IMG/VR virus record: IMGVR_UViG_3300044670_001468
Span: 1 to 49,568 of that record
Length of the DNA: 49,568 bases
DNA from: a virus
Taxonomy: Duplodnaviria > Caudoviricetes
Reading direction: 5' to 3' (one strand)
The notes beneath the pieces were generated by a model. It saw only the letters and a list, made by a program, of their open reading frames with translations, made no database searches and had not been told where the DNA came from. The position numbers and the translations under genes are program-made. Within the stretch, counting starts at the first letter, position 1. Every line of letters begins with the position of its first letter. Below are positions 30,529 to 49,568 of this stretch, piece after piece.

Positions 30529-30828
30529 ATGGATGATATAACACAGAAGATCAAGCATCGTTTTGATCACGAGTCTGCCAAGCGGACACTGCGTGAGAAA
30601 TACGAGGCAAAACTACTATTCGCACACCAGGGCGGCATGTTCCGTGCAGGCCCTGAACTAATAGTCCTACTGAATTCCTATGACACTGGAGAGATGGTCA
30701 TACTGGATGAATTCAAGAATCCCACCAAAGTCACCAGACTTGCCTTATTAGATGAGACCAAGCAACGATATCAGGAACAGCTGAATGCTTGGATGGTTGA
30801 ACTAGCAGAACAATCGAGACAGCGATGA
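30529..30828 (+). CDS. hypothetical protein
   Basis: 99-aa ORF with ATGA overlap to the next gene. Confidence 0.7.
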   Translation: MDDITQKIKHRFDHESAKRTLREKYEAKLLFAHQGGMFRAGPELIVLLNSYDTGEMVILDEFKNPTKVTRLALLDETKQRYQEQLNAWMVELAEQSRQR

Positions 30829-31589
30829 GTCGGGGAGTATTGCTCTACGCATTCAACAATGGCACCACGGACTATCTCTCCATGGCCAAATGGTCTGCCA
30901 AACGCATTGAGAAATTTCTCGGCTTGCCTACGACCATAATATCAAACATGGAGGATGCTGAACTGGGCGGAACACGTGTGTTCAATGCCATCAAGGGAGG
31001 AGAGCCGTGGTATAATGCCAGTCGCAATCGTGCCTGGGACCACAGCCCATACGATGAGACCATAGTCCTGGACGTTGACTACGTGGTCAACTCAGAGATA
31101 CTCAATTTATTGTTTGAAGTGGACAAGCCATTCATGATACATGAGACGGCACATGATGTGACCTGCAGGGGCAACACCATAAATTTAGATCATTTTGGTG
31201 AGCATAAGTTTCCCAGCCGTTGGGCTACGGTGATGTATTTCAATAGATCAACAGAGGCCAAGGAAGTGTTTGATGCAGTGGAGATGATCAAGAGCAATTG
31301 GCGACACTATGGGGATCTATATAAGTTCCGCAGTGACACCTTCCGCAATGACTGGGCATTCTCCATAGCACTTGGCCTCTTGGGAGGACACGTAGAATCA
31401 ATTAAATGTTCGATACCATGGCCATTGGCAACGACAACCACAACGGTTGACGTGGAGATGCAGGAAGACACTTACATATTGCGATATACAGAAAATTTAA
31501 AATCGCGTGCGGTGCTACAAAAGATCAAGGGCATTGATCTACATATAATGAACAAAGACGCAATGGAGAAGATCTGTGCAGGTAGTTAA
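30825..31589 (+). CDS. putative GT-A fold nucleotide-sugar transferase (GT8-like)
   Basis: GVLLYA...Y..MA...AK.I, then SPYDETIVLDVDY (DxD after a hydrophobic strand), RND.AFSIA and a C-terminal H.MNK. Confidence 0.62.
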   Translation: MSRGVLLYAFNNGTTDYLSMAKWSAKRIEKFLGLPTTIISNMEDAELGGTRVFNAIKGGEPWYNASRNRAWDHSPYDETIVLDVDYVVNSEILNLLFEVDKPFMIHETAHDVTCRGNTINLDHFGEHKFPSRWATVMYFNRSTEAKEVFDAVEMIKSNWRHYGDLYKFRSDTFRNDWAFSIALGLLGGHVESIKCSIPWPLATTTTTVDVEMQEDTYILRYTENLKSRAVLQKIKGIDLHIMNKDAMEKICAGS

Positions 31590-32367
31590 GGCAGAACGGG
31601 GTTATCTAATAGTGGCACAAGGCAGTGTGTATCACTCATGTGCCCGTGCCCTTGCCAAGTCAATAAAATATTTCATGCCCAAGGCCAAGGTAGCAGTGGC
31701 GGGAGACTGCCAGGACTCAATATTCGATTATGAGATAGCATTACCCCATGGTGATCAAGGCGGACTTAAGAATGATTGGCAGATATTTGAGGCCTCGCCC
31801 TTCCGCCAGACGATAAAACTAGAGGCAGACATGATCTTAAATGGCTCAATAGATCATTGGTGGACCATGGTCGAGAAGCGTGACGTGTTCGTGGCCCAGG
31901 GCACACGTAACTTCTATGGACACAAGACAACAGATAGAACCTATAGGCGACATCTAGACGATAACAATTTACCTGATGTATATAACGCAGTAACTTATTG
32001 GAGACGATCAGAACTGGCCGCTAAGTTTTTCGTGACCTGTAGGGAGATATTTGATAATTGGGATCAAGTCAAACTTCGTAATTGGAATCAATCAGAACCT
32101 GACACGGACACGGTGTATGCCCTGGCAACTGTATTGTTGGGTCGAGAGAATTTCCTACTGCCCAGCACATACCCACAGTTCGCACACATGAAGGGCAAGA
32201 TAAACTTTTGCAGAAGCGAGGATTGGACCAAGGAATTGGTGTGGGAGTTAACGGATCGTGGACTACGCATACAGACCATACAACAACAGATACCCACGCA
32301 CTATCACGTGAAACATTTTGCTAATCAACTGGAGGAACACTATGACAGCCTTTTGGGAAGTGATTAA
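31576..32367 (+). CDS. putative GT-A fold transferase, paralog of the upstream gene (ExD variant)
   Basis: GYLIVA...Y..CA.ALAKSI, SPFRQTIKLEADM, DTD..YA.A, F.HMK and HYHVK. Confidence 0.6.
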   Translation: MQVVKAERGYLIVAQGSVYHSCARALAKSIKYFMPKAKVAVAGDCQDSIFDYEIALPHGDQGGLKNDWQIFEASPFRQTIKLEADMILNGSIDHWWTMVEKRDVFVAQGTRNFYGHKTTDRTYRRHLDDNNLPDVYNAVTYWRRSELAAKFFVTCREIFDNWDQVKLRNWNQSEPDTDTVYALATVLLGRENFLLPSTYPQFAHMKGKINFCRSEDWTKELVWELTDRGLRIQTIQQQIPTHYHVKHFANQLEEHYDSLLGSD

Positions 32368-32668
32368 GGACAGGCAACCTGTCAATCCACAGGAATTCCT
32401 GGACGAGTATCGATTATATTACAATGAGGATGGAACACCCCGTGAATATTCTAGACAGGAACAAGAAGGTGATTACATTGTCGTTACCAAACAAGAGTTC
32501 TATGAGGGAAGGTTTGATGTTAGGATTGAGAACGGTAAACTGATAAATCCTAATCGCATTACACAGTATCGTAAACTGGTCCCTAGTGATGAGGGAACAG
32601 AAACACTAGTGGATGACATCACTATAATAGGCCAGGGACAGCATTGGAAGGTGAAATATTATGACTGA
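32342..32668 (+). CDS. hypothetical protein
   Basis: ATG 32342 with GGAGG SD, preferred to TTG 32318. Overlaps both neighbours. Confidence 0.7.
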   Translation: MTAFWEVIKDRQPVNPQEFLDEYRLYYNEDGTPREYSRQEQEGDYIVVTKQEFYEGRFDVRIENGKLINPNRITQYRKLVPSDEGTETLVDDITIIGQGQHWKVKYYD

Positions 32669-33563
32669 GATTGATATAGCGGACCTAGACTGCATATACC
32701 TAAGTTATGATGAGCCACAGAAGGAAGAGTTCTGGGTCCAGATCAAGAACATGGTTCCATGGGCAAAACGTGTGGACGGAGTCAAAGGTTCAGATGCCGC
32801 ACACAAGGCCGCGGCTGATGCCAGCGACACGGATAGATTTATCCTAATAGATGGTGATAACATGCCAAGTCCGGACTTCTTTGATCTTACACTGGAACTC
32901 GAAGATGAGGAGTATGAACGTGCAACCTTCCGTTGGAGAGCCCGCAATCATATAAATGGATTAATGTATGGCAACGGTGGACTTAGTTCCTGGACCAAAG
33001 ACTTTGTTTATAATATGAGAACACATGAGAACAGCGACGGCAGTGATGATACCAATGTAGAGTTTTGTTTTGATCCTTTGTATTGGGCCATGCACGATTG
33101 CTATTCAACTACATATCCCAATGCCACGCCTTTCCAAGCATGGCGAGCAGGTTTCCGTGAGGGTGTCAAGATGTGTTTAGATCGAGGACATAAGCCAACC
33201 ATGAATGAATTTAAGCAAAGGGCCAATGGCCGTAACCTAGATAATCTCAACATATGGCACACAGTGGGACGTGATGTTGAAAACGGTATATGGGCTATAG
33301 CAGGTGCCAGACAGGGAACACTGATGACCATGTTGTCGGATTGGGATCATACCGAAGTGCAATGGTTTGACAATCTGGAACGCTTATGGAGTGAAATGGA
33401 ATCACAGGATCCGGATCAAATAGCAAGAGAGAATGGCAAGGAACTTGCAAGATTAGATCTAGATGTTGTAGAACTGGATCAAGAACAAAGTAAATTTTTT
33501 AAACGACACTATAGGTCGAACTGGCGTAACCAAGGACCCATGGTGAGGGAGATAGATGTCTAA
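32661..33563 (+). CDS. putative GT-A fold glycosyltransferase
   Basis: D.IYLSYDEP...RVDGVKG..AAHKAAA..S.T.RFILIDGDN (DxD), ARN.INGL.YGNGG and AWRAGFREG. Confidence 0.6.
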   Translation: MTEIDIADLDCIYLSYDEPQKEEFWVQIKNMVPWAKRVDGVKGSDAAHKAAADASDTDRFILIDGDNMPSPDFFDLTLELEDEEYERATFRWRARNHINGLMYGNGGLSSWTKDFVYNMRTHENSDGSDDTNVEFCFDPLYWAMHDCYSTTYPNATPFQAWRAGFREGVKMCLDRGHKPTMNEFKQRANGRNLDNLNIWHTVGRDVENGIWAIAGARQGTLMTMLSDWDHTEVQWFDNLERLWSEMESQDPDQIARENGKELARLDLDVVELDQEQSKFFKRHYRSNWRNQGPMVREIDV

Positions 33564-34215
33564 GAAATTGTTAATATTAGGTGATAGTTTTTGTCACGGA
33601 ATAGGAACTCATTCGGTATTTAAACATGTTGAGAACACTAGATATGCTTTTGGTAATTATCTGGCAAAACATTTAAAATTAGAATATGTTAATCTAGCAG
33701 AACCAGGAAGTTCTATATTACGATCTATTGAATTAGGCCGAAAATACATATCTGAGAATAAAGATGACATCGAACGTGTTGTAATAGGATGGACAGATCC
33801 CCAAAGAATCTGCCATTATGGAGACGAAAGCAGTCTATTGATATTGCCACAATTTGTTCACTTGGGAAACATCGAAGACGATGATATTTTTGTTAAAGAA
33901 GAAAGACATGTCAAGTTTATTACTGATGGAAACAATCAGGAGTTTTTAGATACGTTACCCAACATTCAAAAAATAATGATACTCAACGGGTTTTTTGATC
34001 ATCAACAATCTATTTCAGAGTCATTGATCATTTGCTTCACTGCCTGGTTGGATAGTATGAATGTTGAGTATCTAGATATAGACAACTTTGGAAGATTAAG
34101 AGAGCATAAGACAAAATTAGATGTTCAATTTAAAGATGTCATGCCAACATTAGATAGACATCCAACCAAGCAAGAGCAGGAAAGATTGGCAGAATTGATC
34201 AAGGAAGAATTATGA
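33556..34215 (+). CDS. SGNH/GDSL-fold hydrolase or acyltransferase
   Basis: LILGDSF (block I), NLAEPGSS, VVIGWT and DRHP (block V). Confidence 0.72.
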   Translation: MSKKLLILGDSFCHGIGTHSVFKHVENTRYAFGNYLAKHLKLEYVNLAEPGSSILRSIELGRKYISENKDDIERVVIGWTDPQRICHYGDESSLLILPQFVHLGNIEDDDIFVKEERHVKFITDGNNQEFLDTLPNIQKIMILNGFFDHQQSISESLIICFTAWLDSMNVEYLDIDNFGRLREHKTKLDVQFKDVMPTLDRHPTKQEQERLAELIKEEL

Positions 34216-35273
34216 CCTGGAGTTGCGGAGCGATAGATCATGCTATAACAATATATCCAGACGGAACTATTAGTCCGTGTTGCCAGACGTCTGCTGACTA
34301 TAGAAAACCTATCAGTAAGCTCAATGACCCTGACAGATTCCATGATTTAAAAACAGAGACTCCACCAACGGCATGTTCGAAATGTGTTAATAATGAACGG
34401 CAGGAGTTAACAAGTTACAGAAAATTCTTTGAGCAATTTGATAATGGCTTGCAATACGTGGATATCAGGAACACCAATGAGTGTAATTTAAAATGCCGTT
34501 ATTGTGGGCCACATTTTAGTAATCAGTGGGCCAGAGAAATGGAACTAGAGCTAGAAACTGTTTATACTAACATAGATGATTATTTAGACGATCTGTTAAC
34601 AGAAGATTTAGATCAATTATACTTCACAGGTGGAGAACCTTTCATAAGCCGAGATCATTGGAACATATTACAAAGATTAGTTAACGATAATAAGAGTAAA
34701 TCTGTGTCGTTGAGATATAATTCTAATCTAACCACATTAAAATTTAAACAATTAGATATCTTTGATCTATGGAGTAAGTTTAAATTTGTTGAAGTTCAGG
34801 CCAGTATCGATCAAAAGGGCGTCTTATTTGAAAACATAAGAAGTGGTGCGAAATGGAACACGATTGAAAAAAATTTATTTAACCTTAAAGAGAAAGTTTA
34901 TGTTACGGTGAGTGTAGTTATTAGCATCTTAAACATATGGAACTTATTCGAATTTTTAGAATATCTCAGAGATAACAAAATTAGTTATTCAACGGTCATA
35001 TTAAAAGGACCTGATTATCTAAGCATAGAATGTGTTCCGCCTAAATTAGAAAAGTTAGCTCTTGAAAGCATCGATAAACTTAGTGGACTACTAGATAATA
35101 ATGTTATAGTTGCATTGAGGTCAATGATAGGTAGTAGAGAAGATGCAGAAAGCATGTTCCAGCATACATTAAATCATATTCTTTTATTGGATAATCTAAG
35201 AAATGAAAACTTGTTTAGCCTTCTTCCTTTTGAGAAATATGCTAAAAAACTTATATTGAATAATAATGGATAA
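34212..35273 (+). CDS. N-terminal-twitch radical SAM protein 1
   Basis: C...I.PDG.ISPCC...CSKC, then CNLKCRYC and YFTGGEPF. Confidence 0.88.
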   Translation: MTWSCGAIDHAITIYPDGTISPCCQTSADYRKPISKLNDPDRFHDLKTETPPTACSKCVNNERQELTSYRKFFEQFDNGLQYVDIRNTNECNLKCRYCGPHFSNQWAREMELELETVYTNIDDYLDDLLTEDLDQLYFTGGEPFISRDHWNILQRLVNDNKSKSVSLRYNSNLTTLKFKQLDIFDLWSKFKFVEVQASIDQKGVLFENIRSGAKWNTIEKNLFNLKEKVYVTVSVVISILNIWNLFEFLEYLRDNKISYSTVILKGPDYLSIECVPPKLEKLALESIDKLSGLLDNNVIVALRSMIGSREDAESMFQHTLNHILLLDNLRNENLFSLLPFEKYAKKLILNNNG

Positions 35274-36696
35274 ACAAAACAAAGGTGATGAAGTATCCAA
35301 GGACTTTAAGAGTAAGTTCTTAAGTGACGCAGAAGTCATGAAAGAACAGTTAGACACAGTAAGTCCTAGCATGTGCTTGGCCAAGTGGAAACAGGTCAGC
35401 CTACATCTCACCACGGGCATGACTAACTCATGCTACCATCCGCCTTTACACCAAATAGATGTTAAACCTCTAGAGTTCCATCCCAGTGCATTACATAACA
35501 CAGCACAAAAGAAACTGGCTCGCAAACAGATGTTAGAAGGCACTCGTCCAGACGAATGTAGTTACTGTTGGACAATGGAAGACGAAGGTAAACTCAGTGA
35601 CAGACACTATCGCTCAGGTGAACCTTGGGCCGCAGAATCATTTAATGAAATAGTAGATGCACCTTGGGACCAGGATGTCACACCAAGTTATGTGGAAGTT
35701 AATTTTAATCACAACTGTAATCTAAGATGCTCTTACTGCTCGCCACAATACTCCACAGCGTGGGAAAAAGAGACAAATGAATTGGGAGCGTGGCCTACGT
35801 CAACGCCACACAATGACCCTAAATATTTTCAGGGTAGGAGAAAGCCTATACCCTTCCGAGAACACAATCCATACCTAACTGCGTTCTGGGAATGGTGGCC
35901 TGACCTTTACCCTGAACTTAAACACTTCCGCATGACGGGCGGAGAACCTTTAATGGACAAGAATACCTATAGGGTATTTGATTATGTCCTGGCAAATCCC
36001 AAACCAGACCTCCACTTAAACGTGACAAGCAATTTTTCAGTAGATGAAAAATTATGGACCAAATATCTGGACTATGTCAAAAAGATATGTGCGGGAGATA
36101 ACGTGGAACATTTCATGCAGTATGTGAGTGTAGATGCTTTCGCTGAACATGCTGAGTATATTAGAGACGGATTAGACTATGCACTGTTGTGGGAACGTGT
36201 CAATCAGTTTTTAACAGAAGTGCCTGAACGTTCAAGCATTACGTTTATTATTACAATGACTAATTTAAATGTAACGTCAGTGGGCAACTTACTAGCGGGC
36301 ATCAACGGCCTTAGGCATATCTATTCAAACACATATCAACGTGTGTGGTTCGACACACCCATACTGAGGACACCTGAATGGATGCGTATGGATCTCCTTC
36401 CTGAGAGCTATGTGGATCAACTTGACCTAATATGGGCCTGGATGCTCAAGTGGAGAGAGACAGAAGAAACTAGATTCAAGGGATTTAAGGACTACGAGAT
36501 AAAAAGACTTGACCGAGATATAGCCTGGATGCGATCGGGCCAGAAATTAGATGATAACTACAAGAGTAAACAAAAAGCAGATTTCTATAGATACTTCAGT
36601 GAACATGACAAGAGGAGAGGCACTGACTTCCTAAAGACATTTCCAGAAATGTCAGCGTGGTGGAAGGAGTGTGAACAGCATGCCAAAAAAGCATAA
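35266..36696 (+). CDS. N-terminal-twitch radical SAM protein 2
   Basis: CLAKW...SCYHP...CSYCW, then CNLRCSYC and RMTGGEPL. Confidence 0.88.
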   Translation: MDKQNKGDEVSKDFKSKFLSDAEVMKEQLDTVSPSMCLAKWKQVSLHLTTGMTNSCYHPPLHQIDVKPLEFHPSALHNTAQKKLARKQMLEGTRPDECSYCWTMEDEGKLSDRHYRSGEPWAAESFNEIVDAPWDQDVTPSYVEVNFNHNCNLRCSYCSPQYSTAWEKETNELGAWPTSTPHNDPKYFQGRRKPIPFREHNPYLTAFWEWWPDLYPELKHFRMTGGEPLMDKNTYRVFDYVLANPKPDLHLNVTSNFSVDEKLWTKYLDYVKKICAGDNVEHFMQYVSVDAFAEHAEYIRDGLDYALLWERVNQFLTEVPERSSITFIITMTNLNVTSVGNLLAGINGLRHIYSNTYQRVWFDTPILRTPEWMRMDLLPESYVDQLDLIWAWMLKWRETEETRFKGFKDYEIKRLDRDIAWMRSGQKLDDNYKSKQKADFYRYFSEHDKRRGTDFLKTFPEMSAWWKECEQHAKKA

Positions 36697-38026
36697 CGAG
36701 ACAGACAAGGAATACAAACGCAGGGTCATTGACATCAAGAGTGAGTCATTCTGCGGAGCCAAGTGGTATAATGCCACCATATGGTTAGGATCTGGCATGA
36801 CAACTAGTTGCCATCATCCCTTGCCACACAAGGTTACTACAGTAGAAGTGGAACGCAATCCCAAGGCCTTACATAACACCGAACAGAAGAAGAAAGAACG
36901 TGCAGAAATGCAGGCAGGCCTTAGACCCAAGGGCTGTGAATACTGCTGGAAGATCGAGGACATGGGCAAGGATGCCGTGTCGGACAGGGTTTATAAAACA
37001 TTATTATACACAGATGAGGAACTAGATGAAGCCTACAACACACCTTGGACACAGGATACTGACCTTAGAACTTTGGAAATTTCTTTTGATAGGACTTGCC
37101 AGTTGGCTTGTAGTTATTGCAACCCCGCTTTTAGCAGTGCTTGGGTTCGCGACATTAAGTTCAACGGCGAGTATACCAACTTGGTTAGTGACGGTCGCAA
37201 CCACTTTACTCATACTCACGATAGCAGTCAGCTTTATACTATCCACGATAATAATCCTTATGTTGAGGCCTTCTTCCGTTGGTGGAAATCAGACCTACAC
37301 AAGACGCTAACTGAGCTACGCATAACAGGCGGCGAGCCGTTGATGTCAGGATACACTTGGCAGTTGTTTGATTGGTTCAAAAAAAATAAGGGACAATCAA
37401 AGACACGTATAGCCATCAACAGTAACTTGGCATTTGAGAAAGACAAGATAGATAGGCTATTAGAAGCCGCAGAAGATGTTGAACTGGACATATACACATC
37501 ATGTGAGGCAACACATGATCATGCTGAGTATATCAGGGACGGCCTAGATTATGCCCAATGGCTAGACAATGTTGAATATCTATTAGCCAGCAAGAGGCTC
37601 AGAGGCATGAACATAATGTGCACCATAAATGCACTGTGTTTAGAAACACTGCCTTACTTTATAAAACAGATCGTCAAACTTAAACAGAAATATGGCAGAG
37701 ATAGCATCTGTATATCACTAAATATCCTACGCTTTCCTAGTTTCCAATCACCTCTGGTGTTGCCTAAGGAAATTAGACAAGCACAGGCTAATAGGTTAGG
37801 CATTGTAAAAACAAACTACACGGAATGGTTCCACGAGTTTGAGATTAATCATTTAGAAAGATTGATAGACTATTTAGAAACAGTGGAAACACCACATTCA
37901 GAAGCATTTGAAATGCCCAAACTACACAACGACTTTAAGCAGTTCTATAGTCAATATGACGAACGTAGGAAGAAGAATTTCACAGAAACATTTAAATTAT
38001 TAAGTGACTGGTATGAGCAACTATAA
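36680..38026 (+). CDS. N-terminal-twitch radical SAM protein 3
   Basis: CGAKW...SCHHP...CEYCW, then CQLACSYC and RITGGEPL. ATG 36680 fits the AAGGAG SD. Confidence 0.88.
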   Translation: MPKKHNETDKEYKRRVIDIKSESFCGAKWYNATIWLGSGMTTSCHHPLPHKVTTVEVERNPKALHNTEQKKKERAEMQAGLRPKGCEYCWKIEDMGKDAVSDRVYKTLLYTDEELDEAYNTPWTQDTDLRTLEISFDRTCQLACSYCNPAFSSAWVRDIKFNGEYTNLVSDGRNHFTHTHDSSQLYTIHDNNPYVEAFFRWWKSDLHKTLTELRITGGEPLMSGYTWQLFDWFKKNKGQSKTRIAINSNLAFEKDKIDRLLEAAEDVELDIYTSCEATHDHAEYIRDGLDYAQWLDNVEYLLASKRLRGMNIMCTINALCLETLPYFIKQIVKLKQKYGRDSICISLNILRFPSFQSPLVLPKEIRQAQANRLGIVKTNYTEWFHEFEINHLERLIDYLETVETPHSEAFEMPKLHNDFKQFYSQYDERRKKNFTETFKLLSDWYEQL

Positions 38027-39293
38027 TTACAATTCATCAGACCCAGTAAAGATAAGTCTAGATCAATTAACTGAGCGTGAAAAGTTTTTGTTAACTGAAT
38101 CAAAAACATTTTGTATGTATCCATGGATCCATCTGCATAGTTACCCAACGGGCGATGCCTATCCATGTTGCCATGCTGAATATCAAGCGGGAGACTTTGG
38201 CAACTGTCAGCAACAATCAATGCAGGAGATATGGTCAAATGATAAGATGATCAAGCTCAGGAATGACATGCTGAACGAGAGGGAACATCCTGCCTGCACC
38301 AGATGTTATGAGCAGGAGAAGGCTGGATTCTTTAGTGGTCGCAAGTCAGCCAACAAGCATCACGGACACAATATCAAGAAGGGCGTTGAATTAGATCCTC
38401 CATTTGAGATGTCATATTGGGACATACGCTTTAGCAATCTATGTAATCTAAGTTGTCGTTCATGTGGTCATATCTTTTCATCAAGTTGGTATCAAGATCA
38501 AAAAGAACTAGCCGGACCCGAATGGGGCAAGAAGAACAAAGCATTGTTCTGGGCAGGACGACACGAAACAGACATGATCGAACAGTTGATGGAACACTTG
38601 GACTATGTGGAGCAGATATACTTTGCTGGTGGCGAACCGTTGATGATGGACGAGCATTATGTCATCCTGGAAGAACTGGAAAAGCGTAAGAAGTTTGATG
38701 TGAGGCTAGTTTATAATACAAACTTTACCAAGACAAAACTAAAGGATCGTTCAGTGTTTGATTACTGGAAGAAGTTTGATAGCGTTGCAGTGGGTGCTAG
38801 CCTTGACGCTATGGGCTCACACGCAGAGTATATTAGAAAAGGCACTAAATGGACAGAGGTAGAAGAAAATAGGCGTCTTATGATAGAAATATGTCCTAAT
38901 GTCGATTTTTATATCAGTCCTACACTGAGCATACAAAATGCCCTACATCTGCCAGACTTCCATCGTGATTGGGTTGAACGGGGATTAATACAACCACAGG
39001 ACTTAAATGTTAATCTATTACAAGATCCAGAGTGGTTGCGTATAGATATTGCTCCGGGACACTATAAAGAAAAGATACGTGTTAAGTATCAAGAACACTT
39101 AGAATGGTTACGTCCGTTAGATAAACTTAACAGAGCAACAGTGGGATTTGAGTCAGCACTAAACTTTTTAAAAACAGATAATACTAAGTTACTTCCTAAA
39201 TTTTGGGAACGCATGGATAAGTTAGACAAGATGCGTAACGAAAATTTATCAGAAGCAATACCGGAGTTAAATGAAATACGAATCAATAATTAA
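38013..39293 (+). CDS. N-terminal-twitch radical SAM protein 4
   Basis: CMYPW...PTG.AYPCC...CTRC, then CNLSCRSC and YFAGGEPL. Confidence 0.88.
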   Translation: MSNYNYNSSDPVKISLDQLTEREKFLLTESKTFCMYPWIHLHSYPTGDAYPCCHAEYQAGDFGNCQQQSMQEIWSNDKMIKLRNDMLNEREHPACTRCYEQEKAGFFSGRKSANKHHGHNIKKGVELDPPFEMSYWDIRFSNLCNLSCRSCGHIFSSSWYQDQKELAGPEWGKKNKALFWAGRHETDMIEQLMEHLDYVEQIYFAGGEPLMMDEHYVILEELEKRKKFDVRLVYNTNFTKTKLKDRSVFDYWKKFDSVAVGASLDAMGSHAEYIRKGTKWTEVEENRRLMIEICPNVDFYISPTLSIQNALHLPDFHRDWVERGLIQPQDLNVNLLQDPEWLRIDIAPGHYKEKIRVKYQEHLEWLRPLDKLNRATVGFESALNFLKTDNTKLLPKFWERMDKLDKMRNENLSEAIPELNEIRINN

Positions 39294-42154: not shown

Positions 42155-43232
42155 AGTTACATTAAGAAATCCGTTAAACAAGCAAGATACTTTAGATTAT
42201 TGGATAATTGCTGACAAACATCAGTTAGCACAGGAATGGATTACAAGTCTTAAAGAAATACTTGCTAGTAATCTAACAATACAAAAAGAATTTTGCTTTT
42301 TAGGTTTCCCTAACTCAGCAAGAACATTAGAATATCTTTGCGACAAGTTAAATCAAGAAATAGAAATCATTAATAACTATGACTACACCCAGCACGGTTT
42401 AGAAGATTATGTAATAGAAGAGTGGTTTCATCCTAATGTTGTGCGTTTTCCTGATTCATACGAAGTAGAACCAAAGCGTGTGTGGATGACATCTGGAGAG
42501 CCTACACGTGAAGCACTGGGTCTGCGTATCAAACATGAAGTAATGAATCAATTACACAATCACTTTGAGCTACTAGAAGGCACAGTAGAGAATCCTAGTA
42601 GATACGGACAAGTAAGTCCGCCTCGTGTGAGACAGGCCATTGGAGAATTAAACATATTGTGCCATGAAATGGAAAGTTTAATTCTAAGTCAACGTAAAGC
42701 CCGTGTTCAACCTGAATGGGTAAGGCCAAGTCAAATAACAGTATTTCCCAACTGTGAAAGAAAACAATTAACAGATGAGCATAGACAGGGCTTTTTGGAT
42801 AATAGTTTTGACAGAGAGTTTGGACATGTCTACATGCACTGGACTCAGATAGGCAAGACTCTACACGAGGTATGGCGAGATGAAGATGCACCAGATCTAG
42901 ATGCTACGATCTGTGATGCAATAACAGAGCTACAATATTTCTCTGGAGAGTTTGACATTGAATGGGCAAAGAGTGTTACCATTAAAGACGAATGGCATCA
43001 AAAGGGAATGTTACAGTTTGAAAATTGGTTATTAAAACACGGACTAGATCCCAAAGATCCAAAGTTAAGTCTAGGATACCTACATCTGGGATATGTTGAT
43101 CTAAAACGTAGTTTTGGCACAGAGGATATGTTTGAGATTTGGCGTCAGCTTGAGACACACCTCGATATATACAGTATAGAAGTCGACGGTGTAAAACAAA
43201 CATTTGATTATTGTTGGAGTGATGAAAAATGA
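42144..43232 (+). CDS. hypothetical protein (paired His/Glu motifs, possible metalloprotein)
   Basis: 362-aa ORF overlapping both neighbours. Contains NQLHNHFE and LNILCHEME. Confidence 0.65.
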   Translation: MEVKVTLRNPLNKQDTLDYWIIADKHQLAQEWITSLKEILASNLTIQKEFCFLGFPNSARTLEYLCDKLNQEIEIINNYDYTQHGLEDYVIEEWFHPNVVRFPDSYEVEPKRVWMTSGEPTREALGLRIKHEVMNQLHNHFELLEGTVENPSRYGQVSPPRVRQAIGELNILCHEMESLILSQRKARVQPEWVRPSQITVFPNCERKQLTDEHRQGFLDNSFDREFGHVYMHWTQIGKTLHEVWRDEDAPDLDATICDAITELQYFSGEFDIEWAKSVTIKDEWHQKGMLQFENWLLKHGLDPKDPKLSLGYLHLGYVDLKRSFGTEDMFEIWRQLETHLDIYSIEVDGVKQTFDYCWSDEK

Positions 43233-43330
43233 AGTGGATCAGAAATTTAATTAACAGGATTAAATTAGAGTTACGATATCGTAAAAAATTAAAAGAACTC
43301 AAGAAACGTGATCCGTTTATATACAAGTAA
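43229..43330 (+). CDS. 33-aa basic peptide MKWIRNLINRIKLELRYRKKLKELKKRDPFIYK
   Basis: Not in the ORF track. ATGA overlap upstream, GGAG SD, TAATG coupling downstream. Fills the gap exactly. Confidence 0.75.
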   Translation: MKWIRNLINRIKLELRYRKKLKELKKRDPFIYK

Positions 43331-43503
43331 TGGAAGAAGTTAAATCGCCATGTGTTTCAATATGTGCCTTGCATGAAGGGATATGTCAAGGCTGTGGACG
43401 AACACAAGAAGAAATATCAGGTTGGTGGGACATGACTAACGAAGAGAAACAACAGGTTTTAGAAAATATTCTGAAGAGACAAGATGAGTTATTTGGGGAT
43501 TAG
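43330..43503 (+). CDS. DUF1289-family small Cys4 (predicted Fe-S/metal) protein
   Basis: Manual translation MEEVKSPCVSICALHEGICQGCGRTQEEISGWWDMTNEEKQQVLENILKRQDELFGD carries the SPC..IC....C.GCGRT..EI..W signature. Confidence 0.82.
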   Translation: MEEVKSPCVSICALHEGICQGCGRTQEEISGWWDMTNEEKQQVLENILKRQDELFGD

Positions 43504-44977
43504 TGCGGGTTTCCATGACGCTTCGATAAGCGTCATTGATTTCAACGGTGACATCAACTTCGCCGGACATGCTGAGCGTTATTCTAAACAAAAGAATGAC
43601 TCGTGCCTCAACACTGACATGTTCCTAGACGCATACACGCATGCGGGAATGATCACGCACATCGCTTATTATGAAAAGCCTCTATTAAAACAATTACGAA
43701 ACTGGCGTTCTGGGATAGGATTTGATTGGAAACGGATGTCCACGTGGCAAGTGCTGGATCGCGAGATACCTCCCAGAGCCTGGAAGATGATAGGCACGGG
43801 CATACCACAGTCAAGTTACCATCATCACAAATCACACGCGGCCGCAGGATTCCAAACAAGTCCGTATGATGATGCCACAGTTGTTGTTATAGACGCCATC
43901 GGCGAGTTTGACACCATAAGCATATGGCACGCATACTATGATCGCAACGGACAGGCTCAGTATACGAAACTATGGAATCAGAAGTATCCACACTCAGTTG
44001 GCCTCTTCTATTCAGCCATGACACAGCGTGCAGGACTTAAACCCAATGAGGACGAATACATCTTGATGGGCATGTCGGCATACGCAAGACCAGACTACAA
44101 TGTCTATGCTGAATTCATAAAAGACAAAGACGACATAGAGTTCTATGACAATCTACATGCTGGCTGTGAAGAATACAGACCAGAGATGACAGACTTCCAG
44201 ATCGCCGCATCCGCACAATACACCGTGGAACAGTGTGTATATAGGATAATGGAGAAAGCACGTAAACTTGGAAAAAGCAAAAACTTAGTCTACATGGGCG
44301 GAGTTGCTCTTAACTGCTCGGCAAACGAACAGCTAGGTAACTACTTTGAAAACGTATGGATCATGCCCAATCCGGGTGATGCGGGCAGTAGTCTCGGAGC
44401 CGCGGCGTTGGCCTACGGCAAGCGGATTAATTGGAAGCATCCATATCTGGGAACGAAGATAGAAGGACCATATCCTGTCAACGGAATACTGGATGAATTA
44501 CTTACTAAAAAGATAGTGGGAGTGGCGAGTGGACGTGCAGAGTTTGGTCCACGTGCATTGGGTAATAGATCATTGTTAGCAGACCCAAGAGGTCCAGAAA
44601 TAAAAGACAAGGTCAATGAGATCAAACGCAGACAAAAGTTCCGTCCTTTTGCTCCCGTAATATTAGAAGAATATGTTAACGAGTATTTTCAAATGCCCAA
44701 GGGCTTTCCTACCAGTCCCTACATGCAGACCACAGCAACCTGCAAGAAGCCCTCAGAATTCCCTGCCATCATACATCAGGATGGAACAAGCCGTGTGCAA
44801 ACAGTGGCAAAGGATTGTGGCAGTGGTATAAGAGAGTTATTAGAAAAATGGTTTGTGATCACGGGCTGTCCTATGCTATTAAACACCAGTTTGAATATCA
44901 AGGGAGAACCAATGGTCAATGATCGTGTGGATGCTGATCGATTTGAGAAACATTATGGAGTTAAGGTAGTCTCTTAA
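43484..44977 (+). CDS. O-carbamoyltransferase (NodU/CmcH/TobZ family)
   Basis: GI.AGFHDAS, HH.SHAA, IDAIGE, GGVALNC, PGDAG.SLG, EFGPRALGNRS, FRPFAP and LLNTSLN. Confidence 0.95.
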   Translation: MSYLGISAGFHDASISVIDFNGDINFAGHAERYSKQKNDSCLNTDMFLDAYTHAGMITHIAYYEKPLLKQLRNWRSGIGFDWKRMSTWQVLDREIPPRAWKMIGTGIPQSSYHHHKSHAAAGFQTSPYDDATVVVIDAIGEFDTISIWHAYYDRNGQAQYTKLWNQKYPHSVGLFYSAMTQRAGLKPNEDEYILMGMSAYARPDYNVYAEFIKDKDDIEFYDNLHAGCEEYRPEMTDFQIAASAQYTVEQCVYRIMEKARKLGKSKNLVYMGGVALNCSANEQLGNYFENVWIMPNPGDAGSSLGAAALAYGKRINWKHPYLGTKIEGPYPVNGILDELLTKKIVGVASGRAEFGPRALGNRSLLADPRGPEIKDKVNEIKRRQKFRPFAPVILEEYVNEYFQMPKGFPTSPYMQTTATCKKPSEFPAIIHQDGTSRVQTVAKDCGSGIRELLEKWFVITGCPMLLNTSLNIKGEPMVNDRVDADRFEKHYGVKVVS

Positions 44978-46133
44978 AAACTTGTTCTAATTCTTGTTTT
45001 TTATTTCTTTTAAACCAGGCCTGGTTGTGTAGTATCGTTGAAGTCATTTCAATATGTTTTTTATGTAGGTCTTCCAAACTCATATCAGCAATCTTTCTAA
45101 CAATTTCTATAATGGCATACCATCGGTAACGGACATTCTTTTCTTGATCATAGCTCTCATCAACCCAGGGGCTGAAAGTCTTATATCCTTGTTCACTAAG
45201 TAGTTCTAAACTTCCGGGTGTTCCTAATATAACAAAAGGTTGTCCATACTTGATTGGCTTAAATGTTTTTTCAGTGAGGAACACTCCCCCGGTGGCATCC
45301 ATGTATGTTTCCATAACTATGTTCCAATAACTATCTGTAAACAAATAATCAACACTTAATGAATGATCGTTGTGTTCGTCTGTGTTAAGGTTATCTGCAC
45401 TCAGAGGTAGCGAATCCTCAAATTTCTTAGATGGGTAATCTATCCCCCGGATGATATCATCCTTGTATGTCTGTCCTCTAATAAACCACCAATTTAAAAT
45501 AGATTGATCTTTAAACTGATCTTTGTTTTTAACATTCCCATAGCTCACATAAGCGTCTTTGGTTAATCCGTCCTTCCATATATTATAGACAAATTCTTTC
45601 CTATATTGCTTATGGACACGATTTAGGCAGGTATATTTCTTAGTCTTGCAGTCAAATATGGTTGGTGCAGGTATGCTAGTATTCTGTATTTCAAATAGAT
45701 ATTCATGGTATTGTAGGTAGGCCATACCATCTATGGAATTAGCGACACTATTTCCGCTCAGAAAGAATATTAATTCTCGATCAATGGAATGTTGTTGGCA
45801 TAATTCTTGTAATCTTTTCTCTATCTCAAAAGGATCGTCGGGCTCACTGTAGATGAATAATATTCTTAATCTCTTCTGTCTCACCCGATCCAACACCTCA
45901 TCTCTGATATAGTTAAAATAATCGCAGGCAAAATCAAAGAAGTAAATATTGATGGGATACCAAGTGCTGTGATCCGTGTCCTCAAACTCAACCCGAGAAT
46001 ATCCAACATCGTGTTGATCGAGGAACTTATCCAGGGCACAGGGCCTGACATAGGGAGCACCATATGCTTGACTTTCGTGTTCCTTTAAGTTATAATTGCT
46101 ATTATTTTCTAAATAAAGTTTAATGTTTGACAT
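44961..46133 (-). CDS. hypothetical protein, possible GT-B fold transferase
   Basis: CLNR....R, W.IV.ET and FLTEKTFKPI..GQPF..LG..G.L..L...GYKTF...DESYD, reminiscent of the GT10 'TEK' motif. Start at ATG 46133 is inferred because the upstream extension is antisense to the next gene. Confidence 0.55.
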   Translation of the reverse strand: MSNIKLYLENNSNYNLKEHESQAYGAPYVRPCALDKFLDQHDVGYSRVEFEDTDHSTWYPINIYFFDFACDYFNYIRDEVLDRVRQKRLRILFIYSEPDDPFEIEKRLQELCQQHSIDRELIFFLSGNSVANSIDGMAYLQYHEYLFEIQNTSIPAPTIFDCKTKKYTCLNRVHKQYRKEFVYNIWKDGLTKDAYVSYGNVKNKDQFKDQSILNWWFIRGQTYKDDIIRGIDYPSKKFEDSLPLSADNLNTDEHNDHSLSVDYLFTDSYWNIVMETYMDATGGVFLTEKTFKPIKYGQPFVILGTPGSLELLSEQGYKTFSPWVDESYDQEKNVRYRWYAIIEIVRKIADMSLEDLHKKHIEMTSTILHNQAWFKRNKKQELEQVFKRLP

Positions 46134-47439
46134 ATTCATAATGGACATGGGTGGCCACAGTGGCAACCTAAAGTATTTAACGGATCGCTTTCCACATGCC
46201 AAGGTTTTGCGTTGGACCACGCATCTTAATTGCATGCGTAAGGCCGCCAAGCAGAGTCGCACCCGAGCATTTTGGTTGATCGGTTCATGCTGTGTCTATG
46301 ACAATTTTGATTTCCTTTGGGAACCTGTTCCGTGGGAACAGTATCAGATACACTGTTGGGCCAGCAAGGATCAGAAACTAGGTGACACATTCCTGATCCC
46401 CACCCAGAAGTTTCTAGAACAAGACCCAGAACGCATAGATCTATATCAGGACGTCAACTGGCACGCGGATGGTGTCAAAAGAGTGGATCCTGAGGTCGTG
46501 AGATACGAGGATGATGACATTATAAGGGCATCTAAAACGCACATAAACACGCCTTACGCCATAGTTTGTAAACATTGGACACACGATTACCAAGAACCAC
46601 AATTATGGGACAATCCCTGCATCATTAACTTGAATCCCAGCAAATCAGCATCGATAGTGCCTAGGACTGCTACCAGTTACATTGATCAGCAGATGTATGA
46701 TTATCCTCACTTGGCAACGGACATCGTATTGCCCGACACACCATTGGATGTGGTGTTCATTGAAAATGGTGAGGTGAATGCAGAAGAGAACTATCTACAT
46801 CTTGAACAAATACTCAAGGAAAAATCCAATAAATTGCACCGTGTGACCAACGTAAAGGGTCGTGTCGCCGCTTATCAGGCCGCGGCTAAGGTCAGTAGCA
46901 CCCCGTGGTTCTTTTCGGTGTTTGCGAAGCTTAAAATAGATGAGAATTTTGATTGGTCATGGCAACCAGACTATTGGCAGGGACCGAAACATTACATATT
47001 CCATGCCCGTAATCCAATAAATGGTCTTGAATACGGACACATGGCCATGATTGCCTACAATAAGAACTTGGTATTATCCAACACGGCAGAGGGATTGGAC
47101 TTTACATTAGATCAGGCACATGAAGTGGTTCCCATATTGTCAGGCGTTGCCAACTATGCTGATGATGAGTTCATGGCATGGCGCTCAGCGTTCCGTGAGG
47201 TCATCAAATTAAAACGCATGTCAGACCTAAGTGCTGACATCGAGACAGAATACAGATTGAAGGTTTGGTTGACCCGTGGTGATGGCATCAAGGGTGAATG
47301 GTCAAAGCAGGGTGCTCTAGATGCTAGTTATTATTACGATGAGGTCCGTGGTGACTTTGATAAGTTGAAACTCAGTTACGACTGGGCGTGGCTCAACGAC
47401 CGCTACAATTACCTACATGGAGAATCACATAGTCGCTGA
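46123..47439 (+). CDS. tandem degenerate GT-A-like protein, paralog of 32661-33563
   Basis: C-terminal half DVVFI..GE..AEENY...RV.NVKG..AAYQAAA..S.T.WFF.VFAK, HARNPINGLEYG and AWRSAFRE aligns by eye with the 32661 protein. Confidence 0.62.
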   Translation: MFDIFIMDMGGHSGNLKYLTDRFPHAKVLRWTTHLNCMRKAAKQSRTRAFWLIGSCCVYDNFDFLWEPVPWEQYQIHCWASKDQKLGDTFLIPTQKFLEQDPERIDLYQDVNWHADGVKRVDPEVVRYEDDDIIRASKTHINTPYAIVCKHWTHDYQEPQLWDNPCIINLNPSKSASIVPRTATSYIDQQMYDYPHLATDIVLPDTPLDVVFIENGEVNAEENYLHLEQILKEKSNKLHRVTNVKGRVAAYQAAAKVSSTPWFFSVFAKLKIDENFDWSWQPDYWQGPKHYIFHARNPINGLEYGHMAMIAYNKNLVLSNTAEGLDFTLDQAHEVVPILSGVANYADDEFMAWRSAFREVIKLKRMSDLSADIETEYRLKVWLTRGDGIKGEWSKQGALDASYYYDEVRGDFDKLKLSYDWAWLNDRYNYLHGESHSR

Positions 47440-48502
47440 TATATTCAACTTCTGTGTCAGTCAATTCGGGATAGAAAGGTAAACTCAGAACTCTCCTGCT
47501 TAGGCTACTAGCCACACTGAGCAATCCTGGATTGTCGTAGTGTTGATATGGCTCCATTTCGTGCAGGGCTCTCTCATAGTGCATCTTACATTCGATGCCA
47601 TCGTTGTGTAGTTTTTCCTTTACGGCGTTCCTGAAGTTGATGTCAATGACGAACTTTTGGAATGCGTGATAACTAAAATACTCTTTCTTGATCACTGGAC
47701 GTATTTCTTCTATGTATTCAAATGCGTCTAACCACCAGGCGGCGATCTTGCGTCTGCGGTCCTGCCATTCATCGATGTATTTTAGTTTGACCAATAATTG
47801 GGCGGCATCTGCCTCACTCATGCGTGAGTTAGTTCCAACTATTGACCAGTCAGGTTTGCCATTGTCTCTATACTTGCGGAACCAATTAGCGGCATCTGGA
47901 TCATGGGTAGCGATAGCACCACCGTTACCATAGTTGCCTAGGTTCTTCATTGGATCAAATGATATCGCTTTCATGACAGGATTGCTACCAAATGGTTCAC
48001 TTAGCCAATGTTGGGCGGCATCCTCCACCAGTATCTTCCAATGTGTCTTGCTACCATTGTCCCTGAACAGTTCTTCCCAAACGGGCGAGCCATACAGGCC
48101 AACGGTGCAGATCGCATCGTAGCTGTCATAGTCGGGTAATTTTGACATGTCCATGACACCATAACTGTCAGTGTCAACTATGATGGGTTCCCATCCTGCC
48201 TTGATCCAACTGTTGATGGTCGCAGGGTATGTCATCGCAGGTAAGCACACTCTAGGTTGTTCCACGTCTTGCTTAATGCCAAAACTATATCTGTGATACT
48301 CAGCGATCATTTGCAGTGCCTGTGTGCCTGAGTGGACGCATATGACGTGATCCATGCCTATGCGTTTGGCCACTTGTTCTTCCAATGCCTGTGTGTAAGG
48401 ACCGTTCATGTGTATACCTGAACGATATACCATGTCTGTGGCGTCCAGGATCTCATCTCTGATTGAGTCGTATTGTTTCCTAAGATTTATAAACGGTATC
48501 AT
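47393..48502 (-). CDS. DegT/DnrJ/EryC1/StrS family PLP-dependent sugar aminotransferase
   Basis: IPF.NL..QY, SGT.AL, EDAAQ, SFDPMKNLG.YG.GG (PLP lysine), NSRM.E and LSLP.YPEL. Confidence 0.93.
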   Translation of the reverse strand: MIPFINLRKQYDSIRDEILDATDMVYRSGIHMNGPYTQALEEQVAKRIGMDHVICVHSGTQALQMIAEYHRYSFGIKQDVEQPRVCLPAMTYPATINSWIKAGWEPIIVDTDSYGVMDMSKLPDYDSYDAICTVGLYGSPVWEELFRDNGSKTHWKILVEDAAQHWLSEPFGSNPVMKAISFDPMKNLGNYGNGGAIATHDPDAANWFRKYRDNGKPDWSIVGTNSRMSEADAAQLLVKLKYIDEWQDRRRKIAAWWLDAFEYIEEIRPVIKKEYFSYHAFQKFVIDINFRNAVKEKLHNDGIECKMHYERALHEMEPYQHYDNPGLLSVASSLSRRVLSLPFYPELTDTEVEYISDYVILHVGNCSGR

Positions 48503-49436
48503 ATACTGACTTCATCCAGTCCGTATATTTCCTACAGCCATCTTCAAAGTCCACCTCTGGCTTGTAGCCCAGATCATTCCTGGCCCTAGTGATGTCCAAT
48601 CTACCTCGGCTTGGGAAGTTCTGATCTCTATCCACTAGTTCTATCCGGCCCTTGCCCAAGAGCTCAACGACCTGTTTCGCGGCCATGTGCAGGGTAATGG
48701 GCTGTGATTCGCAACGTGTGATGTTGTAGATGTCATGTGGGCAGGACTTGGTTGAGGCCAGGGCTATGCCCTGTGCGGTGTCATTGACATAGGTGAAGTC
48801 CAATATCTCATCGGCACCCCTGACCTCTATTGTTTTCCCCCTCAGTGCGTTTAACACGAACTTGCTCAGCACGCGATCCTCAACATCACGGGGACCATAT
48901 ACGGCACTGGGACGTAGTATGACGTAGTTGAAATATTCCTTGTAGTCTTCCACTAACTTCTCGCCCATGTATTTCATTATGGCATACTGACCTCGTGGCT
49001 TACATTCCTGAGTCTCAGGAACTCGATCATCGAAGTCACCGTAGACCATGCTGGATGATATATAGACGAACTTGTTGGCTATGCCCTTTGATGCTTCTAA
49101 TAGATTGATCAATCCCGTGGTCATGACCTCTGATGCCACGCTGGGATTCTGTAGGACCACTTTCTGTCTTGGAAAACTTGCCAGATGTATCACGACCTCT
49201 GGTTGGAAATCATACAAACATTTTGCTACCAATGCTCGATCTCTGATGTCAATATGTCTGGTGGGGACCTGATTGCGTAGATCACCCTGGCGCAGTTGGA
49301 ACAACTTCATCATCTGATCCAATGGTATGAAGTCATAGTTGGTCATGGAGTCAATGACCATGACGTCATGTCCCTCGAGTTGCTTGACGACCTCGTGTCC
49401 TATGAAACCCAATCCACCACTAACCAATATTCTCAT
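48480..49436 (-). CDS. NAD-dependent NDP-sugar epimerase/dehydratase (extended SDR)
   Basis: MRILVSGGLGFIG, VIHLA, YISSSMVYG, YAIMK (YxxxK) and RPSAVYGP. ATG 49436 overlaps the upstream stop (ATGA). Confidence 0.93.
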   Translation of the reverse strand: MRILVSGGLGFIGHEVVKQLEGHDVMVIDSMTNYDFIPLDQMMKLFQLRQGDLRNQVPTRHIDIRDRALVAKCLYDFQPEVVIHLASFPRQKVVLQNPSVASEVMTTGLINLLEASKGIANKFVYISSSMVYGDFDDRVPETQECKPRGQYAIMKYMGEKLVEDYKEYFNYVILRPSAVYGPRDVEDRVLSKFVLNALRGKTIEVRGADEILDFTYVNDTAQGIALASTKSCPHDIYNITRCESQPITLHMAAKQVVELLGKGRIELVDRDQNFPSRGRLDITRARNDLGYKPEVDFEDGCRKYTDWMKSVYDTVYKS

Positions 49437-49567
49437 TTTTTGATCAACTTCCAATATGTCAATTGCTTTTCTGTCATGTTGCACCATAAGTGGACAACGA
49501 ATCCCATGTGATACTCATCACCAAGGGTTATAGTATACCACATGAGCTCATGATCACCACCACAGTT
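49433..49567 (-). CDS. C-terminal part of a hypothetical protein (start outside window)
   Basis: Open frame ...NCGGDHELMWYTITLGDEYHMGFVVHLWCNMTEKQLTYWKLIKK* whose TGA overlaps the epimerase ATG. Confidence 0.6.
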   Translation of the reverse strand, partial: NCGGDHELMWYTITLGDEYHMGFVVHLWCNMTEKQLTYWKLIKK

Positions 49568-49568
49568 C

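Follow-up and report, generated by a model that had tools for sequence, protein, structure and literature searches.

Clusters of sugar genes near tail genes have been described in aquatic T4-like phages, namely the host recognition cluster of pelagimyophages and the sugar and lipopolysaccharide (LPS) clusters of cyanophages, for which a function has only been proposed in the accessible parts of the source papers (PMC7029224, PMC7824862). Such clusters have been annotated as modifiers of host LPS in aquatic myophages for two decades without test. In this work, we analyzed a locus that starts at position 30529 of a 49,568-base window, the whole of IMG/VR record IMGVR_UViG_3300044670_001468 and a genome fragment of a T4-like phage, and that carries glycosyltransferase (GT)-like genes, six radical S-adenosylmethionine (SAM) genes, a carbamoyltransferase gene and amino-sugar genes. 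Comparison with the sequences of relatives indicates that it is a conserved jumbo-phage locus, with a fixed core and variable inserts, rather than a recent island; the island label given to it in the first-pass annotation was not upheld. We tentatively propose that, during infection, its enzymes build an oligosaccharide inside the cell and edit it, a protein of the phage particle being the most likely acceptor; glycan and acceptor are both predicted only.

The locus resembles the pelagimyophage and cyanophage clusters in its glycosyltransferases, nucleoside diphosphate (NDP)-sugar enzymes, radical SAM cassette and carbamoyltransferase near tail genes and, as in a host recognition cluster, glycosyltransferase and radical SAM genes stand beside tail genes. 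By contrast, those clusters are presented as non-syntenic and hypervariable in the portions available of the papers (PMC7029224, PMC7824862), while the core and its order are fixed here in 80 loci. Virion glycosylation is known in mycobacteriophages (Freeman 2023, as cited in the accessible part of PMC12619734). With this system and with that of giant viruses, the locus has in common virus-encoded soluble GT-A enzymes, here predicted from genes. We know of no radical SAM array or carbamoyltransferase in either system. The radical SAM enzymes of the window share with the NF033640 family (N_Twi_rSAM) an N-terminal twitch domain, the CxxxCxxC motif and above-cut-off scores, and differ from what is known of it by occurring as five ordered, old paralogues in one phage locus with GT-like genes and in two twitch classes. 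With BtrN, NeoN and HygY they share a homologous four-cysteine twitch and amino-sugar enzymes as neighbors, but the domain order is reversed. Moraphages, a Lak-related lineage with core glycosyltransferases and no mention of radical SAM enzymes in the part of the paper at hand, are set apart from the clade of the window by description only (PMC12619734). No paper describing the locus was found in the open-licence PubMed Central (PMC) and bioRxiv literature (supplements aside). Taken singly, sugar clusters beside phage tail genes, glycosylation of virions and NF033640 are already known; the literature found there does not mention the combination of genes, the fixed core or the series of radical SAM enzymes in two classes.

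Conservation of the Locus in Related Jumbo Phages

From 30529 to 44977, all genes lie on the plus strand with overlapping starts and stops, in the following order: a 99-aa open reading frame (ORF), two GT-like genes (GT1 and GT2), a 107-116-aa ORF, a third GT-like gene (GT3), an SGNH-like gene, six radical SAM genes (R1 to R6), a 362-aa ORF, a 33-aa peptide gene, a Cys4 protein gene and the carbamoyltransferase gene. This co-directional run, and with it the first-pass observation as a whole, was confirmed, the GT-like, SGNH, radical SAM, Cys4, carbamoyltransferase, DegT and epimerase genes listed there all being found in place. The two further GT-like genes, the DegT gene and the epimerase gene said to follow the run are indeed present, but not as one co-directional block, as the strands are mixed between 44961 and 49436 (minus, plus, minus, minus) and these last four genes have no single shared operon. 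The window stops 81-132 bases upstream of the start of the epimerase gene, an extended short-chain dehydrogenase/reductase (SDR), so that the record is a fragment. Positions 1-30446 are occupied by late sigma factor, sbcC/D, baseplate and virion genes. The baseplate proteins find their best cultured matches (33-37%) among jumbo phages of the Rak2, Atu_ph07 and SCTP-2 types, and the lineage, judged by its sequences, is that of Rak2/RsoM2USA-related jumbo phages.

A scan of viral contigs with the GT3 protein yielded 268 confirmed relatives, and the counts of loci given below concern the best 80 of these 268 (67-93% identity, some duplicates). The last gene of the tail operon (29436-30446, plus strand) encodes a very Ser/Thr-rich protein of 336 aa, a candidate glycan acceptor, and precedes the GT genes in 80/80 loci; GT1 and GT3 were likewise found in 80/80, GT2 in 79/80, the 107-aa ORF in 78/80 and the 99-aa ORF in 66/80, a count from which any ORF overlapped by a longer one on the antisense strand had been filtered out. 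Conserved co-occurrence of the genes was thus found in relatives, with the core order present in 78-80 of the 80 loci for four of the five core genes. The family of the Ser/Thr-rich protein has a mean Ser + Thr fraction of 0.30 (50 sequences) and 40 conserved Ser/Thr columns, and its member in a complete relative (G001) ranks first in Ser + Thr among 287 proteins of at least 150 aa. In the loci with 10 kb of downstream DNA, R2 was present in 56/56, R3 in 51/56, R4 in 49/56 and R5 in 44/56; R6, the 362-aa gene and the carbamoyltransferase gene come next wherever the DNA of the relatives reaches, and the order from R2 through R3, R4, R5, R6 and the 362-aa gene to the carbamoyltransferase gene is held at 46-78% identity. 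Five near-complete relatives measure 340-349 kb, three of which (G001, G002, and G004) share the end of the window, i.e., the carbamoyltransferase gene, two genes of the type found at 44961, a gene with a GT3 domain, DegT and SDR. DegT and SDR are swapped in G005, and G003 is devoid of DegT. Across these sequences, the tailoring genes vary between relatives while the core stays fixed.

Matches to both R2 and GT3 were obtained with a single one of 50,697 annotated phage records, that of Ralstonia phage RsoM2USA, a cultured soil phage with a different host. It carries the 99-aa gene, GT1, GT2, GT3, R2 and a second GT3-family gene, with an SDR gene nearby, and this core lies directly 3' of a homologue of the Ser/Thr-rich gene. 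Proteomics of RsoM2USA is uninformative in this respect, as ten abundant bands were identified, none of them from the core, in the part of the study that was accessible (PMC8504454). The whole phage locus was also found in order in two contigs binned as Haliscomenobacter and Legionellales (L082 and L083), which are probably mis-binned phage DNA.

Radical SAM Enzymes

All seven radical SAM enzymes of the window exceed the curated NF033640 cut-off of 170 bits (205-393 bits), with 235, 318, 290, 393, 333, and 284 bits for R1 to R6 and 205 bits for R0, an enzyme encoded outside the locus. In all seven, twitch cysteines spaced C-x17/18-C-x31-51-CxxC stand N-terminal to CxxxCxxC, and PF13186 is found at the N-terminus of R4-R6. 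The four twitch cysteines are invariant or near-invariant, as in the site of a four-cysteine auxiliary cluster, and such a cluster is predicted here. The N-terminal twitch aligns with that of BtrN (BtrN residues 183-258 against profile positions 23-95, domain E 4e-4), an enzyme of aminocyclitol oxidation whose auxiliary cluster, ligated by four cysteines, serves electron transfer according to the available part of the literature (PMC10337720). The twitch domain is normally C-terminal to the barrel, as stated in the section at hand of PMC9477430; it is N-terminal here, and the BtrN/NeoN-type assignment of the first pass gave way to one to NF033640.

The second twitch position separates two classes, being Ser-Cys in R0, R2, and R3, which form one clade, and Cys-Cys in R1 and R4-R6. 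R2 (35266-36696) and R3 (36671-38026), both on the plus strand, have four twitch cysteines and RsoM2USA orthologues, while R4 (38004-39293), R5 (39271-40860), and R6 (40847-42154), also on the plus strand, have five. The Ser-Cys state was observed in 59/63 R2 and 57/61 R3 sequences and the Cys-Cys state in 50/51 R4, 41/45 R5 and 29/30 R6 sequences. Each paralogue constitutes an old orthologous group across phages; in the aligned sequences, then, the state is nearly fixed per paralogue and the paralogues appear to be old. Loss of one cysteine reportedly turns the epimerase HygY into a dehydrogenase, to go by the title of the paper concerned. In NeoN, a spare cysteine is the hydrogen donor, as the accessible part of the study reports (PMC10991966). 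By analogy, we infer that the Ser-Cys paralogues R2 and R3 may be oxidases and the Cys-Cys paralogues epimerases.

R1 (34212-35273, Cys-Cys class) forms, with the SGNH-like gene (33556-34215), an insert on the plus strand (33556-35273) with a GC content of 0.33, versus 0.41-0.47 for most flanking blocks. Both genes are missing at this place in the closest relatives (L002-L006), and together they are a variable low-GC insert. The SGNH-like protein displays GDS and DRHP motifs, its Pfam GDSL match (E 0.0012) being below the cut-off. R0 (718-1965, minus strand; Ser-Cys class) lies between sbcD and sbcC, a slot that holds a radical SAM enzyme of another subgroup in G001. The model of R4 (pLDDT 90.6) is a radical SAM barrel whose fold matches are tied, with BlsE on top beside a sactipeptide maturase, viperin, and anSME (Z 13.9-12.9), SkfB also being among them, and with BtrN just 49th (Z 6.1).

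Glycosyltransferase-Like Proteins and Small Open Reading Frames

The first core gene (30529-30828, plus strand) encodes the 99-aa protein, which has 519 clusters at E <= 0.001 and matched no Pfam or PDB family. GT1 (30825-31589, plus strand) has an invariant D83-x-D85 motif and, as ESM feature neighbors, PF03407/PF01501 (GT77/GT8 clusters) at 0.95-0.97. Its paralogue GT2 (31576-32367, plus strand; profile-profile probability of 99.4% against GT1) has an invariant E83-x-D85 motif and a weak similarity to glycogenin (E 0.11). These language-model neighbors and the D-x-D and E-x-D motifs suggest that both may be GT8/GT77-like, with no Pfam match. The ~107-aa protein (32345-32668, plus strand) gave no significant family in searches. 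A possible likeness of the 99-aa and 107-aa ORFs to DUF4376/Tfa, as halves of a tail-fiber assembly chaperone, was unsupported by PDB, Pfam, and PHROG, with 0/57 distant members matched, and was not used.

GT3 (32661-33563, plus strand) is 40% identical to RsoM2USA ORF350. Structural matches for its model and that of R4 were obtained via VIA-align. Its AlphaFold model (pLDDT 83.7) had 50 matches listed, all of them GT-A or nucleotidyltransferase folds (best Z 6.2, rmsd 5.1, 207 aligned) and including the virus glycosyltransferases PBCV-1 A64R, STIV A197, and Mimivirus R699. According to the model, GT3 is a GT-A-fold protein with a DxD-type motif (DGD, 64-66). Of the three plus two GT-like proteins announced in the first pass, the GT-A fold of this one was supported by modeling; none of the five ORFs had a significant GT match in Pfam, PDB-profile or NCBIfam searches. 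PDB searches with profiles from the alignments of GT1, GT3, the 44961-type proteins and the 362-aa protein likewise gave nothing significant, and neither of the latter two had a PDB match.

Downstream of the co-directional run, the gene at 46123-47439 (plus strand) encodes a protein whose C-terminal half (201-422) is a GT3 paralogue, with a domain E of 2e-67 to a GT3 profile that included this very stretch and an independent BLAST E of 3e-9; its orthologue sits after R2 in RsoM2USA. The gene at 44961-46133 (minus strand) encodes a phage-family protein with multiple paralogues in relatives and a weak GT10 (fucosyltransferase)-like C-terminal motif (FLTEK). As 1/61 members of its family matches PF00852 (E 0.046) and its ESM GT10 neighbors reach just 0.79, the GT10 likeness is a weak lead. 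Apart from the radical SAM enzymes, the proteins have no clear membrane segment (maximal 19-residue hydropathy <=1.24); the values for R1 (1.77) and R6 (1.59) belong to radical SAM barrels. Since the transferases show no clear membrane segment, we expect a soluble pathway located in the cytoplasm.

Carbamoyltransferase End and Amino-Sugar Genes

The 362-aa protein (42144-43232, plus strand) has invariant HxFE and CHE motifs, which may form a metal site, and a homologue near radical SAM and carbamoyltransferase genes in a Bacteriovorax contig. The next gene (43229-43330, plus strand) encodes a near-invariant basic peptide of 33 aa ending in RDPFIYK, found before the carbamoyltransferase gene in 14/18 loci in which the start of that gene is covered (duplicates and the window included). 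It is almost invariant though the relatives are otherwise ~50-60% identical, and it may be a partner or a substrate of the carbamoyltransferase; a supposed SxtK/DUF5989 likeness found no Pfam match. It is followed by the Cys4 protein (43330-43503, plus strand; 57 aa, DUF1289, E 2.5e-18) and by a NodU/TobZ-family carbamoyltransferase (43484-44977, plus strand) with PF02543 and PF16861 (Carbam_trans_N and Carbam_trans_C), which stays below the NodU equivalog cut-off (139 vs. 1000 bits) and was found in 5/5 genomes searched. In RsoM2USA, ORF199-203 (L180:984-6560) encode the R3 orthologue, three proteins that look SGNH-like by eye and the carbamoyltransferase.

At the end of the window, both on the minus strand, are a DegT/DnrJ sugar aminotransferase (47393-48502; E 4e-54, EDAAQ and SFDPMK motifs), missing from 2/5 genomes searched (G003 and RsoM2USA), and the NDP-sugar epimerase/dehydratase of the extended SDR type (48480-49436; E 5e-39), whose open frame runs to 49487. 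In G001, a complete relative, there are also genes for SAM synthetase, IscU, two UDP-glucose dehydrogenases and an NDP-sugar C-methyltransferase. This genome carries, moreover, a cluster at 83253-88850 (L165) of GTP cyclohydrolase I, PTPS and a short-chain reductase, possibly a pterin pathway, with the SAM synthetase and C-methyltransferase genes nearby. A 7-deazaguanine modification, suggested by FolE and PTPS in G001, was discarded since no gene of the TGT (tRNA-guanine transglycosylase) family was found, a search in which a divergent DpdA could be missed.

Terminator and Promoters

The tail operon is closed by an intrinsic terminator-like hairpin (30470-30495, plus strand), and similar hairpins exist in most relatives. 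It is followed on the plus strand by a putative promoter region (30505-30523) made of the late-type box TATAAATA (30505-30512) and an extended -10 box, TGtTATAAT (30515-30523), 5 nt before the ATG. A second one (46068-46115, plus strand; TTGACT-17-TATAAT plus TAAATA) precedes the gene at 46123. Across sequences, TAA[AG]TA is the late box of the clade; it precedes the fiber gene in 55/61 distinct relatives and four structural genes in the window. Both operon heads of the window carry this TAAATA box seen before structural genes, in line with the proposed virion glycosylation. The box which the first-pass annotation had placed at the head of the gene run is thus present behind the terminator, but it is a feature of a sub-clade, with a sigma70-type -10 box alongside, and the single occurrence of TATAAATA in the window compares with 1.48 expected by chance.

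In relatives, TAA[AG]TA precedes the core operon in just 7/59 cases, while a sigma70-type -35/-10 pair was found at its head in 49/59 and, in 51/59, a -10 box lies 4-8 bases upstream of the start. The late box alone, formerly taken as favoring virion glycosylation, is therefore no argument for it. With a sigma70-type promoter in most relatives, the operon is probably active from an early stage, and perhaps at late times as well in the sub-clade of the window. No RNA holder was listed for positions 30400-36700, a result that is neutral as to expression. In most relatives (L008-L081, about 7500-7900), the T-run of the terminator doubles as a -35 box (TTTACT), which belongs to the leaderless sigma70-type promoter of the core operon.

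Proposed Function and Alternative Explanations

From a mechanistic point of view, SDR and DegT would supply an NDP-amino-deoxysugar, and the core (the 99-aa ORF, the GT8/GT77-like pair, the ~107-aa ORF and the third GT-A protein) would start a short glycan on a conserved acceptor and lengthen it; the Ser/Thr-rich protein encoded directly upstream is the best candidate for this acceptor. Each radical SAM enzyme would edit one sugar carbon, the four-cysteine auxiliary cluster acting as electron sink; the Ser-Cys paralogues (R2 and R3) would oxidize, and the Cys-Cys paralogues (R1 and R4-R6) would quench the radical and epimerize. The carbamoyltransferase would add an O-carbamoyl and the SGNH protein an O-acyl group. 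A phage acceptor is favored by the junction of an invariant core with one structural gene across hosts and by the extreme Ser/Thr content of its product. We thus rank a virion protein first, tentatively, before the host envelope, with DNA as the least likely acceptor. A more specific version appears doubtful to us, namely that this widespread lineage coats its particles with an amino-sugar glycan that carries a carbamate cap and is sculpted by a fixed series of twitch radical SAM enzymes with circularly re-ordered domains, of which two would be oxidases and three or four epimerases, a single Ser/Cys position setting them apart; this would be the first function for NF033640 and would have no characterized viral counterpart.

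A pathway of sugar synthesis, tailoring and transfer, as first proposed, is supported by conserved synteny, GT-A-like folds and twitch homology to BtrN, and this part of the initial interpretation stands, at variance with its late-box argument, BtrN/NeoN membership, island and completeness. Indeed, completeness is unproven because further NF033640 and NDP-sugar genes are scattered in near-complete relatives and DegT is missing from two of five genomes. Several observations weigh against our proposal. Ser/Thr richness is common in phage fiber proteins. The fold Z-scores of GT3 are modest, with nucleotidyltransferases tied with glycosyltransferases, and since the radical SAM fold matches are tied as well, structure does not fix the substrate class. 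The epimerase-dehydrogenase parallel is a tentative one, drawn in part from the title of the HygY paper. The near-complete relatives hold 6-16 above-cut-off NF033640 genes each, many of them outside the locus, and in RsoM2USA the carbamoyltransferase gene and the R3 orthologue lie ~95 kb away from the core. The host sigma70-type leaderless promoter behind the terminator suits early host modification at least equally. Bacterial homologues were collected with a Cys-Cys-type query (79 loci, 77 of them non-phage-like, many on short contigs), and a homologue of GT3, carbamoyltransferase, DegT or SDR was found in the DNA fetched for 10 of the 77. Eighteen loci were scanned with Pfam, 7 of them picked for such sugar-gene matches and 11 regardless; among the latter, a GT or NDP-sugar gene was nearby in 4 and none within ~4.7 kb in 7.

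The pathway could instead remodel the host envelope, lipid-linked precursors of LPS, O-antigen or capsule being altered early so as to block superinfection or predation, an alternative which we consider unlikely but the most serious one. GT8-like transferases are LPS enzymes, and the host sigma70-type promoter in 49/59 relatives argues in this direction. So do some bacterial homologues of the radical SAM enzymes, located near Wzm/Wzt-type ABC genes, NeuB, GT87 or GT90, as well as Bdellovibrionota contigs in which members of the GT3 family occur together with arrays of radical SAM genes (L156:4351-6020 and L158:6773-7492), which suggests from sequence a cellular version of the core in these predatory bacteria. 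The same role has been proposed for pelagimyophage and cyanophage sugar clusters in the excerpts available (PMC7029224, PMC7824862). However, the core is invariant beside one structural gene in marine, freshwater and soil phages of different hosts, and no flippase, polymerase or membrane transferase was found in the locus. This fixed linkage to the tail operon would also be left unexplained if the locus made a free small molecule (an aminoglycoside-, pseudosugar- or nucleoside-like glycoside) inhibiting rival phages, host defenses or grazers; the locus contains no exporter or resistance gene, and the minimal RsoM2USA block consists of four GT-like genes and one radical SAM gene. DegT, twitch radical SAM enzymes and TobZ-family carbamoyltransferases are nonetheless typical of aminoglycoside and nucleoside-antibiotic pathways, and small sugars or nucleotides are the substrates of BlsE, the top fold match, and of viperin and BtrN, both of them profile matches. 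A metabolite role was put forward for cyanophage carbamoyltransferase clusters, in the part accessible to us (PMC7824862), and we regard such a product as distinctly unlikely here. Less probable still is a composite locus, in which a conserved GT core adjoins a landing zone in which radical SAM, SGNH and sugar genes, each acting on its own, accumulate. The mixed strands at the right end, the low-GC insert, the many NF033640 genes scattered over complete genomes, the unlinked carbamoyltransferase and R3 genes of RsoM2USA and the lack of DegT in G003 and RsoM2USA are in line with it, but not the R2-R6-362-aa gene-carbamoyltransferase order, kept at 46-78% identity with overlapping stop and start codons.

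Hypermodification of the phage DNA (glycosyl- or carbamoyl-hydroxymethylpyrimidine), formerly an alternative on a par with host-surface remodeling, is now the weakest explanation and seems to us very improbable, given site avoidance and the handle enzymes not found in relatives. The locus does have GT, epimerase and carbamoyltransferase classes in common with phage DNA hypermodification clusters (5mYOX/ThyS with GT; carbamoyltransferase for 5-hydroxymethylcytosine). DNA is indeed modified in phages by glycosyltransferases together with epimerases, and by carbamoyltransferases, and the known systems pair these transferases with handle enzymes, as far as the available parts of the reports go (10.1101/2023.12.21.572611, PMC8670742). 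A thymidylate synthase gene, moreover, flanks the locus (ThyX in G001, ThyA in G003). However, the hydroxymethyl-handle enzyme (Asp-type ThyS, or 5mYOX with or without C5-methyltransferase) was not found in near-complete relatives, the genome of the window itself being a fragment. PF00303 was not found in G001, G004, and G005 (three of four near-complete relatives searched), and in G003 the enzyme carries the canonical Asn. When 267 proteins of G001 (130-1,300 aa) were scanned with Pfam, ThyX only was returned. No C5-methyltransferase or TGT was found in the five genomes searched, and a Tet_JBP (5mYOX) search gave 0/5, though its positive control did not register. Restriction sites are, in addition, avoided, as if the DNA were unshielded: GTAC occurs 0 times in the window vs. 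85.2 expected and is also missing from the locus of the closest relative, GCGC occurs 16 times vs. 60.1 expected, and a palindromic 4-mer falls below 0.25 of expectation in 10/56 long relative loci. Such avoidance is compatible with a sparse or non-protective DNA modification. In a 41-kb RsoM2USA stretch, no palindromic 4-mer was below 0.8 of expectation. The beta-glucosyltransferase and Asp-type synthase homologue of RsoM2USA are >200 kb from the core, according to Table 2 in the accessible part of PMC8504454, and DNA glucosylation would thus be handled elsewhere in this phage. These genes, ORF2 (record 1890-3020; beta-glucosyltransferase-like) and ORF10 (L179:3608-4498; Asp-type thymidylate-synthase homologue), likely form a cytosine-modification locus, judging from their sequences. 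Relatives avoid different sites (TCGA, AGCT, ACGT, and GCGC), possibly a fingerprint of host restriction systems.

The fixed core, the adjoining candidate acceptor, the small version in a cultured phage and the evidence against DNA make the question of the acceptor directly testable. If glycosylation of the phage particle is true, it would provide a substrate for the large NF033640 family (7,565 matches among 8,000 scored candidates), expanded to 6-16 copies in these phages, and could reveal new radical reactions on sugars, as well as a layer of glycan that shields environmental phages or tunes their use of receptors.

Other Features of the Tail Region

Upstream of the Ser/Thr-rich gene, positions 13936-27333 encode a virion structural protein of 4,465 aa (PHROG 10938) with weak FG-GAP, T7-fiber, and CBM (carbohydrate-binding module)-like matches. 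The gene at 28059-29411 encodes a fiber-like protein with a C-terminal Peptidase_G2/IMC autocleavage domain.

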